64,000 nt of DNA from the NCBI RefSeq assembly GCF_044647545.1, contig NZ_CP172818.1, one strand, 5' to 3'. A program made the position numbers and the translations under genes. Each line of letters starts with the position of its first letter. The stretch's first letter is position 1. Below the pieces are notes generated by a model that saw only the letters and a list, made by a program, of their open reading frames with translations, ran no database searches and had not been told where the DNA came from. Positions 14,537 through 21,541 of the stretch are shown here, in pieces. Origin of the DNA: Escherichia coli. GTDB lineage: Bacteria > Pseudomonadota > Gammaproteobacteria > Enterobacterales > Enterobacteriaceae.

Positions 14537-15589
14537 TCAGGCGATAGTAATTTTGCTATCGAGATAAACGTCCTGTACGGCGTTAATCAGTTTCACGCCG
14601 TCAGCCATCGATTTCTTGAAGGCCTTACGTCCAAGAATCAGCCCCATTCCGCCTGCGCGTTTGTTGATAACCGCAGTACGCACTGCATCGCTGAGGTCAG
14701 TTTCACCGCCTGCAGCACCGCCGGAGTTTATCAACCCGGCCCGGCCCATATAGCAGTTAGCTAACTGATAACGCACCAGGTCAATCGGGTTTTCACTGGT
14801 CAGTTTGCTGTAGACTCGATCGTCGGTATAACCGTAATTAATCGCTTTATAGCCGCCGTTATTTTCCGCCATTTTTTGTTTGACGATATCTGCACCTATG
14901 GTTGCCGCCAGATGGTTCGCCTGACCAGTCAGGTCGGCGGAAACATGGTAATCAACGCCATCTTTCTTAAAGGCGGAGTTACGCAAATAGGCCCACAGCA
15001 CTGTCACCATGCCCAGCTCGTGCGCACGTTCAAAAGCCGCAGAAATTTCTTCAATCTGGCGACGTGACTCTTCCGAGCCAAAATAGATAGTCGCCCCAAC
15101 CGCCACCGCGCCCATATTGAACGCCTGCTCCACGCTGGCATACAGCGTTTGATCGTAGGTATTCGGGTAACTTAGCGTCTCGTTGTGATTAAGTTTGACG
15201 AGGAATGGAATGCGATGCGCGTAACGCCGCGATACCGATGCCAGCACGCCGTAAGTTGACGCCACACAGTTACAGCCCGCTTCGATCGCCAGTTCAACAA
15301 TGTTTTTCGGGTCAAAGTAGAGCGGGTTAGCGGCAAATGAAGCTCCGGCAGAATGCTCAACGCCCTGGTCAACCGGCAGAATAGAAAGATATCCTGTGCC
15401 AGCCAGACGCCCGGTGTTGTACAACGTCTGCATATTACGTAACACCGCTGGCGGGCGATTATTGTCAATCATCACGCGGTCTACGTAGTCATGTCCGGGG
15501 AGATAAAGCTGGTCAGAAGGAATAGTCATACAACGGTGCTGTAAAAGGTTGTCGGCGTCTTTGCCAAGCAACTGCGCAATATCTGTCAT
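14537..15589 (-). CDS. fbaB: Fructose-bisphosphate aldolase class I (FbaB)
   Basis: 350 aa from [16 protein letters not shown]; DhnA-type class I aldolase; ORF-track start (15661) over-extended by 24 codons. Confidence 0.9.
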
Positions 15590-15845
15590 TACTATGCTCC
15601 CGTAAATTCCGATTGGATATCGGCTATGGATTGTCCTGGCCCGCCTTTTGCGGGCAATCATAATCCTGGTCGTTACGGGCGAGTTTTTCCATCTTTTGGA
15701 TGTTTTTTCAGCGTTTTCTGTTGGCTCGATTCATCAGAAAAAATGTTACCGCGGTCAAGTTTTCACCGCAAAGGTATTTGAAAGGTATTATTAAGTGGTA
15801 TTGTCATCGCGTACCTTACATTACCTGTCATGAAGGAATTAAAAG

Positions 15846-17123
15846 ATGAAAACAACAGCAAAGCTGTCGTTCATGATGTTTGTTGAATGGTTTATCTGGG
15901 GCGCGTGGTTTGTGCCATTGTGGTTGTGGTTAAGTAAAAGCGGTTTTAGTGCCGGAGAAATTGGCTGGTCGTATGCCTGTACCGCCATTGCGGCGATCCT
16001 GTCGCCGATTCTGGTTGGCTCCATCACTGACCGCTTTTTCTCGGCACAGAAAGTGCTGGCGGTATTGATGTTCGCTGGTGCGGTGCTGATGTATTTCGCC
16101 GCGCAACAGACCACTTTTGCCGGGTTCTTCCCGTTACTGCTGGCCTACTCGCTAACCTATATGCCGACCATTGCGCTGACTAACAGTATCGCTTTTGCCA
16201 ACGTGCCGGATGTGGAGCGTGATTTCCCACGCATTCGTGTGATGGGGACTATCGGCTGGATTGCCTCTGGTCTGGCATGTGGATTCTTGCCGCAAATGCT
16301 GGGTTATGCCGATATCTCACCGACGAACATCCCGCTGCTGATTACTGCCGGAAGTTCTGCTCTGCTTGGTGTGTTTGCGTTTTTTCTGCCCGACACGCCA
16401 CCAAAAAGCACCGGCAAAATGGATATTAAAGTCATGCTCGGCCTGGATGCGCTGATCCTGCTGCGCGATAAGAACTTCCTCGTATTTTTCTTCTGTTCAT
16501 TCCTGTTTGCGATGCCACTGGCGTTCTATTACATCTTTGCCAACGGTTATCTGACCGAAGTTGGCATGAAAAACGCCACTGGCTGGATGACGCTCGGCCA
16601 GTTCTCTGAAATCTTCTTTATGCTGGCATTGCCGTTTTTCACTAAACGCTTTGGTATCAAAAAGGTATTGTTGCTTGGTCTAGTCACCGCTGCGATCCGC
16701 TATGGCTTCTTTATTTACGGTAGTGCGGATGAATATTTCACCTACGCGTTACTGTTCCTCGGTATTTTGCTGCACGGCGTAAGTTACGATTTTTACTACG
16801 TTACCGCTTACATCTATGTCGATAAAAAAGCTCCCGTGCATATGCGTACCGCCGCGCAGGGGCTGATCACGCTCTGCTGCCAGGGCTTCGGCAGTTTGCT
16901 CGGCTATCGTCTTGGCGGTGTGATGATGGAAAAGATGTTCGCTTATCAGGAACCGGTAAACGGACTGACTTTCAACTGGGCCGGGATGTGGACTTTCGGC
17001 GCGGTGATGATTGCCATTATCGCCGTGCTGTTCATGATTTTTTTCCGCGAATCCGACAACGAAATTACGGCTATCAAGGTCGATGATCGCGATATTGCGT
17101 TGACACAAGGGGAAGTTAAATGA
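15846..17123 (+). CDS. yegT: Nucleoside:H+ symporter-family MFS transporter YegT
   Basis: 425 aa, 12 predicted TM helices, NupG/XapB-like. Confidence 0.88.
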   Translation: MKTTAKLSFMMFVEWFIWGAWFVPLWLWLSKSGFSAGEIGWSYACTAIAAILSPILVGSITDRFFSAQKVLAVLMFAGAVLMYFAAQQTTFAGFFPLLLAYSLTYMPTIALTNSIAFANVPDVERDFPRIRVMGTIGWIASGLACGFLPQMLGYADISPTNIPLLITAGSSALLGVFAFFLPDTPPKSTGKMDIKVMLGLDALILLRDKNFLVFFFCSFLFAMPLAFYYIFANGYLTEVGMKNATGWMTLGQFSEIFFMLALPFFTKRFGIKKVLLLGLVTAAIRYGFFIYGSADEYFTYALLFLGILLHGVSYDFYYVTAYIYVDKKAPVHMRTAAQGLITLCCQGFGSLLGYRLGGVMMEKMFAYQEPVNGLTFNWAGMWTFGAVMIAIIAVLFMIFFRESDNEITAIKVDDRDIALTQGEVK

Positions 17124-18124
17124 AAACAGAACGTATTCTCGGTGCTCTTTATGGGCAGGCGTTAGGGGATGCGATGGGGATGCCCTCCGAGCTTTGGCCA
17201 CGCAGCCGCGTTAAAGCACACTTTGGCTGGATTGATCATTTTCTGCCTGGACCAAAGGAGAATAACGCGGCCTGTTATTTTAACCGCGCCGAATTCACCG
17301 ACGATACCTCGATGGCGCTGTGTCTGGCGGATGCGTTACTGGAACGTAAAGGCAAGATCGATCCGGATCTGATTGGGCGTAATATTCTCGACTGGGCGCT
17401 GCGTTTCGACGCCTTTAACAAAAACGTACTAGGTCCGACCTCGAAGATTGCGCTTAACGCCATTCGCGACGGTAAACCCGTTGCTGAACTGGAAAATAAC
17501 GGCGTGACCAACGGCGCAGCGATGCGCGTCTCGCCATTAGGTTGTTTGCTTCCGGCGCACGATATTGACTCTTTTATTGATGATGTGGCGCTGGCCTCCA
17601 GCCCGACACATAAATCCGATCTGGCGGTTGCGGGGGCGGTAGTCATCGCATGGGCGATTTCTCGTGCCATTGACGGAGAAAGCTGGTCAGCGATTGTTGA
17701 TTCACTGCCTTCAATTGCGCGACATGCTCAACAAAAACGCATCACTACCTTCAGCGCCTCACTGGCAGCACGTCTGGAGATTGCGCTGAAAATTGTGCGC
17801 AATGCCGATGGCACCGAATCCGCCAGCGAACAGCTTTACCAGGTCGTTGGCGCAGGTACCAGCACTATTGAGTCCGTTCCGTGCGCCATTGCGCTGGTTG
17901 AACTGGCACAAACCGACCCGAACCGTTGCGCCGTCCTGTGCGCTAACCTTGGCGGCGACACAGACACCATCGGTGCTATGGCGACGGCAATTTGTGGCGC
18001 GTTGCATGGCGTTAACGCTATCGATCCTGCGTTAAAGGCGGAACTGGATGCAGTAAATCAGCTTGATTTCAACCGCTATGCCACGGCGCTGGCGAAGTAT
18101 CGCCAACAACGGGAGGCGATATGA
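17120..18124 (+). CDS. yegU: ADP-ribosylglycohydrolase-family protein YegU
   Basis: 334 aa; ARH family N-terminal signature (GALYGQALGDAMGMP ... DDTSMAL); start overlaps yegT stop (ATGA). Confidence 0.88.
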   Translation: MKTERILGALYGQALGDAMGMPSELWPRSRVKAHFGWIDHFLPGPKENNAACYFNRAEFTDDTSMALCLADALLERKGKIDPDLIGRNILDWALRFDAFNKNVLGPTSKIALNAIRDGKPVAELENNGVTNGAAMRVSPLGCLLPAHDIDSFIDDVALASSPTHKSDLAVAGAVVIAWAISRAIDGESWSAIVDSLPSIARHAQQKRITTFSASLAARLEIALKIVRNADGTESASEQLYQVVGAGTSTIESVPCAIALVELAQTDPNRCAVLCANLGGDTDTIGAMATAICGALHGVNAIDPALKAELDAVNQLDFNRYATALAKYRQQREAI

Positions 18125-19086
18125 GCGGCGCTCGATTACACACGCTGCTGCCTGAATTAGCCACGCGTCAGCCGGTGATGGTCGTCGGCGCGGCGGTCAT
18201 TGATGTGATCGCCGACGCTTATGCCCTCCCCTGGCGTGGGTGCGATATCGAACTGAAACAGCAGAGCGTTAACGTTGGCGGCTGTGCACTGAATATTGCC
18301 GTGGCATTAAAGCGCCTCGGCATCGAAGCGGGTAATGCCTTGCCGCTCGGTCAGGGGGTGTGGGCGGAGATTATTCGCAACCGGATGGCAAAAGAGGACT
18401 TAATCAGCCTGATCGATAACGCCGAAGGTGATAACGGCTGGTGTCTGGCGCTGGTTGAGCCGGATGGCGAACGCACTTTTATGTCATTCAGCGGTGTGGA
18501 AAATCAGTGGAATCGCCAGTGGCTGGCGCGATTAACCGTTGCGCCTGGCAGCCTGCTCTATTTTTCCGGTTATCAACTGGCCTCGCCCTGCGGCGAATTG
18601 TTAGTGGAATGGCTGGAAGAGCTGCAAGACGTGACGCCATTTATCGATTTTGGCCCACGTATTGGCGATATCCCGGATGCATTACTGGCGCGGATCATGG
18701 CCTGTCGACCTTTAGTGTCACTCAATCGTCAGGAGGCTGAGATTGCCGCCGAACGTTTTGCTTTATCCGCAGAGATAACAACACTAGGCAAGCAATGGCA
18801 GGAGAAATTTGCTGCGCCGTTGATCGTTCGTCTCGATAAAGAGGGCGCATGGTATTTCAGCAACGACGCTTCTGGCTGCATTCCGGCATTTCCAACGCAA
18901 GTTGTAGACACCATTGGGGCGGGCGACAGTCATGCCGGCGGCGTACTTGCCGGGCTGGCCTCTGGTCTGCCACTGGCGGATGCCGTATTACTGGGCAATG
19001 CAGTGGCGTCGTGGGTTGTCGGGCATCGGGGCGGTGATTGTGCGCCAACGCGCGAGGAACTACTCCTCGCACACAAAAACGTATAG
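18121..19086 (+). CDS. yegV: PfkB/ribokinase-family sugar or nucleoside kinase YegV
   Basis: 321 aa; PfkB C-terminal motif (DTIGAGDSHAGG); start overlaps yegU stop (ATGA). Confidence 0.88.
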   Translation: MSGARLHTLLPELATRQPVMVVGAAVIDVIADAYALPWRGCDIELKQQSVNVGGCALNIAVALKRLGIEAGNALPLGQGVWAEIIRNRMAKEDLISLIDNAEGDNGWCLALVEPDGERTFMSFSGVENQWNRQWLARLTVAPGSLLYFSGYQLASPCGELLVEWLEELQDVTPFIDFGPRIGDIPDALLARIMACRPLVSLNRQEAEIAAERFALSAEITTLGKQWQEKFAAPLIVRLDKEGAWYFSNDASGCIPAFPTQVVDTIGAGDSHAGGVLAGLASGLPLADAVLLGNAVASWVVGHRGGDCAPTREELLLAHKNV

Positions 19087-19806
19087 ATCGCTGCGACAGT
19101 GGCTGATGCTGTACTCAATAGGCCGTTGCTGTTGGTCAAGCGCCACTTGCTTGATCACCAGCACCGGTACTTTGCTATCTAACTGAATATGTGACTGAAA
19201 CTCGGCATCCGGCATCCGGGCGCTAACGCGGGAACGCGTACGTTGTGGGTAAATGTGCTGGCTGCGGAAGTAGTCATAAAGAGAAATTCCGATGGCATCA
19301 ACATCATGAATTAAATGCGCCGGAACCCACGATTCCTCAATCGATACCGCTTCTTCATCGACATAGCGAATACGCTTAAGCAAAAAGACATCACTTCCCG
19401 CTTCGACCGCCAGCTGCTGCGCAACTTCTTCGGGACATTTCACGACACGCTTGTTAACCCATAGCGTATCGGGCTTTTTCCCGCGCAATACCACCTGCTG
19501 AGAAAAACCTCGCGCTTCTTTCAACGAGTATTCGAAGATGTTGTTGATCTGCGTACCGTAACCACGCGAACGCGTCACCACGCCCTCTTCTTCCAGCGCC
19601 TGCATCGCCTTGCGCACCGTAATGCGCGAAACGCCGGTTAACTGACTTAAATCACGCTCACCGGGCAAAATATTGCCATGCTCCAGCACCCCGCTGCGCA
19701 CGGCATTTTTTACCGTTTCGGCAAACTTAATATAAAGCGGCGTGTTATCCGCCGCTAAAATACGTTCGTTCAGTTGGGCAATCAGCTGGGTATGCGCTTG
19801 TTCCAT
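19060..19806 (-). CDS. yegW: GntR/HutC-family transcriptional regulator YegW
   Basis: 248 aa; N-terminal GntR wHTH (PGERDLSQLTGVSRITVRKAM), C-terminal UTRA domain; convergent with, and overlapping, yegV 3' end. Confidence 0.88.
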   Translation of the reverse strand: MEQAHTQLIAQLNERILAADNTPLYIKFAETVKNAVRSGVLEHGNILPGERDLSQLTGVSRITVRKAMQALEEEGVVTRSRGYGTQINNIFEYSLKEARGFSQQVVLRGKKPDTLWVNKRVVKCPEEVAQQLAVEAGSDVFLLKRIRYVDEEAVSIEESWVPAHLIHDVDAIGISLYDYFRSQHIYPQRTRSRVSARMPDAEFQSHIQLDSKVPVLVIKQVALDQQQRPIEYSISHCRSDLYVFVCEE

Positions 19807-19857
19807 TTGTCTTTTTCCTGCCGGGGAGTCTGGTGGGAGTATATCACTGCTTCTTAT

Positions 19858-20740: not shown

Positions 20741-21541
20741 TCACCACCAGGCGTGGAAGTGGTGAACCGGACCAATACCGTGACCAACTTCCAGCGTGTC
20801 GGCCTGGGCTAACGCCGATGAAAGCCAGCTTTTTGCCTCCTGTACGGTGTCAGCCCAGTTTGTATGGCGCGGGCGCAGTGCAGCCAACGCCGCAGAGAGC
20901 GTACAACCAGTGCCGTGAGTGTTTTTGGTCATAATGCGCGGTGCGGTAAACCGTTGTTCCCCCTCACGAGTAAACAGCCAGTCCGGGCTTTGCCCATCAT
21001 CCAGATGACCACCTTTCATTAGCACTGCGCCACAGCCCATCGCCAACAGCGATCGCCCTTGTTCCAGCATTTCCTGTTCGGTGCGCGCGTGTGGCGCGTC
21101 GAGCAAGGCGGCTGCTTCGGGCAAGTTTGGCGTTATTAATGAAACCTGTGGCAATAATCGACTGCGCAGCGTAGCAACCGCCGAAGGTGAAAGCAGCGGG
21201 TCGCCGCTTTTTGCCAGCATAACGGTGTCGAGTACCACGTTTTGGATCTGATAACGTTGCAACCGTTCTGCCACCGCTTCAACAATATCGGTTTCCGCCA
21301 ACATACCGATTTTAGTGGTGTCGATTCGCACATCACTGAACACCGAATCGAGCTGGGCGGCGACAAAATCAGGCTCAATGCGATACACCGACTGTACGCC
21401 ACGGGTATTTTGCGCCACCAGTGCAGTAATAACTGAGCAACCATAAGCGCCAAGTGCCGAGAAGGTTTTAAGATCGGCCTGAATCCCCGCACCACCACTC
21501 GGATCAGTACCGGCAATCGTCAGAGCGTTAATTCGTTTCAT
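20741..21541 (-). CDS. thiD: Hydroxymethylpyrimidine/phosphomethylpyrimidine kinase ThiD
   Basis: 266 aa; recognised ThiD; start overlaps thiM stop. Confidence 0.93.

Follow-up and report, generated by a model that had tools for sequence, protein, structure and literature searches.

The DNA analysed here is a 64,000-nucleotide stretch (the window) of the Escherichia coli contig NZ_CP172818.1 (RefSeq assembly GCF_044647545.1), and our subject is the yegTUV operon within it and the regulator gene yegW, now ggaR, which together probably constitute a repressor-controlled module for the uptake and breakdown (or salvage) of a non-canonical riboside. On the plus strand lie yegT (15846-17123, 425 aa), encoding an MFS transporter of the NHS (nucleoside:H+ symporter) family; yegU (17120-18124, 334 aa), encoding a putative metal-dependent glycohydrolase with the fold of the ADP-ribosylglycohydrolase (ARH) family; and yegV (18121-19086, 321 aa), encoding a PfkB-family kinase, predicted to act as a riboside 5'-kinase. 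The minus strand carries yegW (19060-19806, 248 aa), which encodes the GntR/HutC-family repressor of yegTUV. Start and stop codons overlap as ATGA at 17120-17123 (yegT/yegU) and 18121-18124 (yegU/yegV), Shine-Dalgarno-like purine runs (GAAGGAA, AAGGGGA and GGGAGG) precede the starts of yegT, yegU and yegV, and the coding 3' ends of yegV and yegW overlap convergently over 27 nt (19060-19086). An identical E. coli chromosome is annotated in RefSeq with the same coordinates for all four open reading frames (ORFs) and with the product names 'nucleoside permease' (yegT), 'ADP-ribosylglycohydrolase family protein' (yegU), 'carbohydrate kinase family protein' (yegV) and 'GntR family transcriptional regulator' (yegW). 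The gene positions, the two ATGA overlaps and the convergent, overlapping regulator reported in a preliminary description of this DNA are thus exact in both the sequence and the annotation.

The 4.3-kb block holding the four genes is present at a coverage of at least 80% in 5419 of 5426 complete E. coli genomes and therefore belongs to the core genome of the species; several chromosomes carry it at 100% identity. RefSeq places fbaB on one side of it and yegX, thiD and thiM on the other. Earlier publications already cover this locus, its regulator and the co-transcription of its genes, and the substrate is the remaining question. YegW was renamed GgaR and described as a single-target repressor of yegTUV by Saito et al. 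2024 (PMC10819704). In that work, chromatin immunoprecipitation with microarray detection (ChIP-chip) placed the genome's one YegW peak in the fbaB/yegT spacer and the peak comprised two adjacent sites, the strong one within the 190 bp upstream of yegT and the weaker within yegT nt 571-869, while Northern blotting with yegT and yegV probes gave a single 3.3-kb band, visible only with yegW deleted, and the deletion derepressed yegTUV about 30-fold (PMC10819704). The genes are thus co-transcribed, and no unrelated role has been defined for them. The published case for DNA binding and repression by GgaR also draws on gel shifts and RT-qPCR (PMC10819704). A scan of the sequence found no intrinsic terminator between yegT, yegU and yegV, nor between or after the convergent genes. 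According to Saito et al. the function of yegTUV awaits study (PMC10819704), a G3 survey of 2025 still calls YegV an uncharacterised sugar kinase, and the literature searched holds no substrate assignment for YegU, YegV or modules pairing an ARH protein with a PfkB kinase, so that the absence of an established substrate remarked on in the preliminary description holds there.

YegU matches the Pfam family ADP_ribosyl_GH (PF03747) with an E-value of 1.9e-66, residues 8-302 covering positions 1-285 of the 287-position model, and stays under the equivalog cutoffs for DraG (81 vs. 337 bits) and Tri1 (70 vs. 490 bits). Its nearest solved relative is the uncharacterised archaeal protein MJ1187 (PDB 1t5j, E 1.6e-29), followed by ARH3 at about 1e-15. 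Aligned with ARH3, YegU places E24, T60-D61-D62 and D280/D282/T283 on E41, T76-D77-D78 and D314/D316/T317, respectively; among 40 members of the YegU family D61 and D282 are invariant and the rest are at least 90% conserved, apart from E24, which is present in 30 of the 40. The TDD and DxDT triads we take, as in ARH structures, to be the metal ligands. Glu41 is essential in ARH3, where F143 and Y149 stack on the adenine. The latter two align with N126 and V129 of YegU, in a part of the alignment rendered somewhat uncertain by a three-residue gap nearby; 22 of the 40 family members have Lys or Arg at position 126, with no conserved aromatic residue there, and hence neither the alignment to ARH3 nor the family as a whole reveals adenine recognition of the ARH3 type. 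As judged by these alignments, YegU keeps the putative ARH metal centre and is without the adenine-stacking residues, and because the latter are absent a true ADP-ribosyl substrate appears unlikely. In characterised ARH enzymes the substrate ribose bears a 5''-phosphate and has its 2'',3''-diol bound by the metals; ARH1 and ARH3 show selectivity for alpha-1'' linkages.

YegV matches Pfam PfkB (PF00294) at an E-value of 1.5e-55 and belongs to the PfkB superfamily by its GG dipeptide (G53-G54), its NxxE motif (N202/E205) and the catalytic Asp in G266-A267-G268-D269, which are conserved across its family. Its highest-scoring characterised relatives are ribokinases; against the ribokinase equivalog TIGR02152 it reaches 81 bits, the cutoff being 299.65, and falls outside that group. 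The pocket was examined by aligning 58 family sequences to E. coli ribokinase, the register being anchored by pairwise alignment to PDB 1gqt. Equivalents of ribokinase D16, G41, G42, N46 and D255 are invariant (58 of 58), the residue equivalent to N14 is always hydrophobic (V, F, I, M or L), and Cys replaces K43 in 47 and A98 in 45 of the sequences. In the paper on the ribokinase structure 1RKD, D16 and N46 are said to hold the 2',3'-diol of the sugar and D255 to activate O5', and N14 and K43 reportedly lie on the anomeric and ring-oxygen side of free ribose. Because the diol clamp and the catalytic Asp are kept and the anomeric-side contacts of N14 and K43 are lost, the predicted pocket of YegV fits a kinase for a ribofuranose substituted at C1. 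As a separate observation, Cys55 (codon 18283-18285) and Cys108 (codon 18442-18444), which occupy the K43 and A98 positions in YegV itself, line the predicted sugar pocket.

With 653 bits over its full length against the nucleoside permease model TIGR00889 (cutoff 446), YegT is a member of the NHS family (TC 2.A.1.10); it is identical to PDB 8zoj and gives 178 bits to NupG. A crystal structure of YegT at 3.1 Å has been published (Xiao et al. 2025, PMC11979927), and the GxxxD protonation motif described in transmembrane helix 10 (TM10) of NHS transporters (PMC11979927) is present as G311-V-S-Y-D315. YegT gave no signal in isothermal titration calorimetry (ITC) with uridine, adenosine, cytidine or guanosine (PMC11979927) and showed no uptake of uridine, cytidine, xanthosine or gemcitabine (PMC11241209). 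Since both kinds of test were negative, canonical nucleosides are largely excluded as the substrate of yegTUV. YegW joins a GntR winged helix (E 7e-16, residues 29-87) to a C-terminal UTRA domain (E 2.7e-36, residues 108-242) and is for this reason assigned to the HutC subfamily. Taken together, the profile matches bear out the families named in the preliminary description (NHS, ARH, PfkB and GntR/HutC). Of its suggestion that the substrate is an '(ADP-)ribosylated or nucleoside' compound, the ribose-containing part stands, while canonical nucleosides and true ADP-ribosyl groups lose ground for the reasons given.

Searching 1.84 billion representative proteins yielded 236 clusters at E < 1e-30. 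Gene neighbourhoods were looked up and genomes representing 100,044 species were scanned, the scan giving 79 loci, and both sets were analysed by our own ORF calling and clustering. In 56 of the 71 loci with a called hydrolase ORF, a PfkB kinase is encoded within four genes of the YegU homologue, and well over half of the loci have a YegW-like GntR/UTRA regulator close by. The transporter accompanying the pair varies. It is of the NHS (YegT) type in Enterobacterales, Vibrio and Gilliamella; an NCS1 permease gene separates those of the two enzymes in Aeromonas, Bacillaceae, Lactobacillaceae, Dialister, Mitsuokella, Streptomyces, Thermogemmatispora and others (by group, also Negativicutes and Chloroflexi); a PnuC-family carrier (TIGR01528, 96 bits vs. 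a cutoff of 42; PF04973, E 4e-35) follows 3' of the kinase in Lachnospiraceae, other Clostridia and Epulopiscium; and a few loci have ECF-type sets or ABC permease genes alongside the pair. Moreover, 13 long YegU-family proteins were examined, and in 12 of them a PfkB domain is present as well, in both domain orders; seven of these fusions rest on BLASTP, three more were confirmed with NCBIfam models, and two (P0193 and P0208) were inferred from their like architecture. The thirteenth, P0158, is a tandem ARH-ARH duplication. The conserved unit is therefore the hydrolase with the kinase, usually accompanied by a HutC-type repressor, with the transporter swapped by lineage. A conserved pair with interchangeable carriers argues strongly for a small-molecule pathway, and against roles as a protein de-ADP-ribosylase or specific to ADP-glucose. 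Clustering of about 1,100 neighbouring ORFs revealed no recurrent aglycone-processing gene, nor anything else beyond transporters and regulators, which suggests that the aglycone is a common metabolite or is not used further. Genes for galK/galT and ABC-F proteins beside some Lachnospiraceae copies look incidental and were set aside.

Several loci depart from this pattern. Three without an adjacent PfkB gene (L078, L080 and L093) have, beside ECF genes and the YegU homologue, a protein of about 270 aa (cluster 56), the N-terminal domain of which is related to AIR synthase (PurM/ThiL/SelD superfamily; PF00586, E 6e-08) and which may replace the kinase non-homologously. Two of them, L080 (Marinimicrobia) and L093 (Melioribacter), each have two further proteins of 628-739 aa (cluster 34) downstream of the YegU homologue, resembling by eye TonB-dependent outer-membrane receptors. 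In Edwardsiella hoshinae (L037) and E. ictaluri (L039) yegU and yegW are kept with no adjacent yegT or yegV in our ORF calls, which looks like partial loss of the module. Among metagenomic contigs, some have two hydrolase-kinase pairs next to each other (L012-L013; 957-2913 and 3221-9008), one of them following ABC permease genes and the other accompanied by an ECF transporter, and in L009-L010 a second, longer ARH paralogue (464 aa) is divergent from a regulator-kinase-hydrolase cluster.

Upstream of yegT, a consensus scan predicted a sigma-70 promoter on the plus strand at 15762-15791 (-35 TTCACC at 15762-15767, an 18-nt spacer and -10 TATTAT at 15786-15791; 9 of 12 consensus matches), here a candidate for the promoter of yegTUV. 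It is overlapped by a predicted GgaR operator array (15771-15826) made up of direct GGTA cores, starting with those at 15773 and 15784 and followed by one at 15797, and of the inverted form TACC at 15812 and 15822. The cores at 15773 and 15784 belong to tandem AAGGTATT repeats 11 bp apart, the second of which overlaps the -10 element. Phylogenetic footprinting of 24 gamma-proteobacterial yegT upstream regions showed AAAGGTATTT-AAAGGTATTA-N5-6-TGGTA-N~10-GTACC to be kept while the flanks drift, and a variant form of the same repeat is found upstream of yegT in Vibrio, Budvicia, Hafnia and Rahnella. The whole window contains exactly two copies of GGTATN6GGTAT (15773-15788 and 16653-16668) where 0.09 are expected, and each copy falls within one of the GgaR-bound fragments of PMC10819704: the upstream array within the 190-bp fragment shifted by GgaR, and the copy inside yegT (16653-16668, plus strand) within probe 5 (yegT ORF nt 571-869, i.e. 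16416-16714 of the window). The intragenic copy, predicted to be a low-affinity GgaR site, retains both GGTAT repeats in only about 10 of 24 orthologues, which is consistent with lower affinity; as a conserved element it was rejected, since it is only partly conserved and its wobble positions drift. Because the main text of PMC10819704 gives no GgaR motif, we regard the GGTAT operator as a new prediction. Its extension beyond the gamma-proteobacteria was rejected, the Firmicute and actinobacterial loci having other palindromes, of the TTGT...ACAA type. A palindrome search also found a CRP-like TGTTA-N6-TCAAG at 15744-15759 in the fbaB/yegT spacer, of which the core TGTTA-N6-(G)TCA is kept in the upstream regions of Enterobacteriaceae and Pectobacterium. 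It matches a CRP site reported for this spacer by genomic SELEX (systematic evolution of ligands by exponential enrichment; PMC3105977) and is a candidate site for either of the divergent promoters.

Based on these findings, the best supported course of events is import, 5'-phosphorylation and then hydrolysis to ribose-5-phosphate and aglycone, an order that we hold to be correct on balance, with modest confidence. YegT, as a proton-coupled NHS transporter, would import the riboside; YegV would phosphorylate the ribose 5'-OH; and YegU, as a two-metal hydrolase of the ARH fold, would then cut the bond at ribose C1', releasing ribose-5-phosphate and the free aglycone. GgaR bound to the tandem GGTAT repeats would occlude the -10 element and keep the operon off until freed by a pathway-related ligand. 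The operator motif, the order of the enzymatic steps and the choice of a small-molecule riboside over an ADP-ribosylated macromolecule are what we infer here. PnuC carriers, as known from PnuC/NadR, work by facilitated diffusion, the riboside being trapped by phosphorylation. We favour the kinase acting first because of the YegV pocket, the YegU pocket, the 5''-phosphorylated substrates of ARH enzymes, such trapping beside PnuC, and the precedents of PsuK/PsuG and STM4066 described below. The preliminary description had read the operon as importing, cleaving and phosphorylating a ribose-containing compound; uptake, kinase and glycosidic cleavage remain in our scheme, and it is the sequence of steps that changes, phosphorylation before cleavage being the likelier. 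More broadly, and with somewhat less than even confidence, we propose that yegUV and its relatives represent a widespread pathway in which an ARH-fold, small-molecule 5-phosphoribosyl glycohydrolase works downstream of a dedicated riboside kinase.

Several points weigh against this proposal. The literature searched reports no enzymatic activity for YegU or YegV and no transport substrate for YegT. The phosphate-binding role presumed for the conserved loops GP[ST][ST] and TNGAAMR and residue H164 of YegU rests on ARH3 and DraG structures and not on a result of this analysis. The equivalent of ribokinase E143 is variable, not uniformly lost, in the YegV family, and neither the fusions nor the gene adjacency distinguish between the two orders of steps. 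Ordinary nucleosides are beta-linked whereas ARH1 and ARH3 are alpha-selective, so either the substrate is an alpha-riboside or specificity has altered in this clade. Finally, ADP-glucose, the sole reported effector of GgaR (10-100 uM), has no evident place as an intermediate in the route proposed here.

The alternative that survives best reverses the two enzymes: YegT would import a riboside, YegU would split it into free ribose and aglycone, and YegV, as a dedicated ribokinase, would form ribose-5-phosphate. The top characterised relatives of YegV are indeed ribokinases, in E. coli the genes are arranged T-U-V, gene adjacency and fusions suit this order equally well, and ribose-utilisation loci of Bacteroidetes pair ribokinases with nucleoside-cleaving enzymes that include ARH-family members. 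YegV, however, is far under the cutoff of the ribokinase model (81 vs. 300 bits), and ribokinase N14 and K43 are missing throughout its family. Further, E. coli already has RbsK, yet a kinase is near-obligatory beside YegU homologues and sometimes fused to them, and the characterised ARH enzymes use 5''-phosphorylated ribose. Cumulatively, we consider the hydrolase acting first to be possible but doubtful.

A published proposal, which we think improbable, is that yegTUV acts on or supplies ADP-glucose, which GgaR senses so as to tune glycogen accumulation. In gel shifts GgaR was released by 10-100 uM ADP-glucose and not by glucose or ADP, and deletion of ggaR about doubled early glycogen and slowed growth in M9 glucose (PMC10819704); a yegV deletion is also among the listed glycogen-reduced mutants. 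On the other hand, just these three compounds were tried as effectors, and higher glucose raised yegTUV mRNA only about 3-fold in the wild type (PMC10819704) as opposed to the roughly 30-fold effect of deleting the repressor, because of which the true inducer was probably absent from the published cultures. An ARH enzyme would find no ribosyl glycosidic bond to cleave in ADP-glucose, YegU is without adenine-stacking residues, and across phyla the enzyme pair is linked to PnuC, NCS1 and ECF carriers, that is, to carriers of the riboside, nucleobase or vitamin type. ADP-glucose may instead mimic a ribotide-like ligand of GgaR. The glycogen phenotype could arise indirectly, through an adenylate pool disturbed by overproduction of the kinase and hydrolase, given that GlgC is inhibited mainly by adenosine monophosphate (AMP).

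That YegU is a true (ADP-ribosyl)hydrolase on protein or nucleic acid, in a signalling, toxin-reversal or defence locus with incidental neighbours, would agree with its Pfam membership and intact catalytic and metal centre but is very improbable in view of its scores far under the DraG and Tri1 equivalog cutoffs, the lack of a match of any of the four proteins to the defence-system models of PADLOC, the lost adenine-stacking residues, its translational coupling to a transporter and kinase in a pairing that recurs across phyla with fusions, and the fact that no gene for an ADP-ribosyltransferase was noted in the set of recurrent neighbours.

The surroundings of the operon supply some further observations. 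The 27-nt overlap of yegV and yegW is kept exactly in 18 loci of Enterobacteriaceae and Pectobacterium and is absent in Budvicia, Gilliamella, Hafnia, Rahnella and Vibrio; yegV-yegW also figures in an RNA-seq 'excludon' list of overlapping convergent pairs (PMC12288877). Read-through from derepressed yegTUV could conceivably reduce yegW expression. The GH25 lysozyme-like gene yegX is on the same strand as yegW, the start of which is 51 nt downstream (gap 19807-19857). Because a consensus scan found no promoter-like site in that gap, yegW may share a transcript with yegX; published work describes the level of GgaR as constant and very low. On the other side, the mechanically called fbaB ORF (14537-15661, 374 aa) reaches to an upstream ATG, while RefSeq gives 350 aa and a start at 15589, which makes the true fbaB/yegT spacer 256 bp.

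The module also occurs near thiamine genes or thiamine pyrophosphate (TPP) riboswitches in three places: in E. coli, with thiD at 20741-21541 and thiM and the TPP riboswitch beyond it; in a Lactobacillales locus with tenA (L007, 12315-12405); and in Leuconostoc (L066, 16135-16235). With nothing of the kind in the other 31 scanned loci, a thiamine link was set aside as a probable coincidence. No riboswitch upstream of operons of the yegU-yegV type was detected in 33 non-enteric loci with Rfam at gathering thresholds.

What is new in this analysis is the cross-phylum core with swapped transporters, the fusions, the active-site argument for the kinase acting first and the operator prediction. The search for the substrate is thereby narrowed to non-canonical ribosides and their 5'-phosphates. 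PnuC and the yeast NCS1 member Nrt1 are nicotinamide riboside carriers, and for this reason pyridine ribosides are possible candidates; alpha-ribosides, for example ribosides of cobamide lower ligands or compounds formed in (poly)ADP-ribose breakdown, are possible because ARH enzymes are alpha-selective. Imidazole ribosides, by analogy with STM4066, and modified RNA nucleosides are possible as well. If the substrate is a pyridine riboside, YegU might be a missing nucleosidase of the nicotinamide mononucleotide (NMN) type.

To our knowledge, the ARH family is known only for reversing ADP-ribosylation. The yegTUV genes look like an ordinary repressor-controlled catabolic operon, the hydrolase of which may be an uncharacterised metabolic use of the ARH fold, and they form one of the E. 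coli core operons still lacking a known substrate. The enzyme pair is common to gut Enterobacteriaceae, Lachnospiraceae, lactobacilli and Negativicutes, in addition to Vibrio, Streptomyces and Chloroflexi. Identification of the substrate would give a large branch of the ARH superfamily its first metabolic, non-signalling function, would explain the disturbance of glycogen and growth upon derepression, and would add to the nutrient or salvage routes that matter for colonisation of the gut.

Among known systems, the E. coli psuK (yeiC), psuG (yeiN) and psuT (yeiM) genes follow the logic proposed here, combining a transporter of the nucleoside type with a PfkB kinase for 5'-phosphorylation of a non-canonical riboside and with a glycosidase yielding ribose-5-phosphate and a base. 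PMC9247573 describes PsuK and PsuG as handling pseudouridine by kinase and then glycosidase. The components differ: PsuG has a fold unrelated to that of YegU and cuts a C-C glycosidic bond, PsuT is of the CNT family whereas YegT is of the NHS family, and YegV scores 18.6 bits against the pseudouridine kinase model (cutoff 540).

Salmonella STM4065-4066-4067 has the architecture of yegTUV-yegW and comprises a permease, a PfkB kinase, an ARH-family protein and a GntR-type repressor. The repressor gene we take to be STM4068. For STM4066, which adjoins the ARH-family gene STM4067, published work has demonstrated aminoimidazole riboside 5'-kinase activity, and an STM4067 mutant is attenuated in the pig intestine. 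The Salmonella locus is paralogous or analogous to yegTUV and not its orthologue. Salmonella has its own YegU at about 83% identity; the STM4066 structure was not among the PDB matches of YegV with E-values up to 1e-5. The Bacteroidetes ribose-utilisation system Rus likewise unites kinases of the ribokinase type, a transporter and variable ribose-releasing enzymes, ARH-family members among them; Rus, however, is SusC/SusD-based, is induced by ribose and has kinases acting on free ribose, and yegTUV has no SusC/SusD.

Regarding the individual proteins, NupG and XapB share with YegT the NHS family, 12 transmembrane helices and the TM10 GxxxD motif, but NupG is only about 27% identical to YegT, in which its uridine contacts F143, Y318, F322 and N228 are not conserved. 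ARH3, ARH1 and DraG share with YegU the Pfam family, the fold, the TDD/DxDT motifs and the catalytic Glu. By analogy with these enzymes, the chemistry of YegU is likely to be ARH-type, metal-assisted hydrolysis at ribose C1, placed in a context of uptake and catabolism whereas ARH3, ARH1 and DraG serve protein modification.

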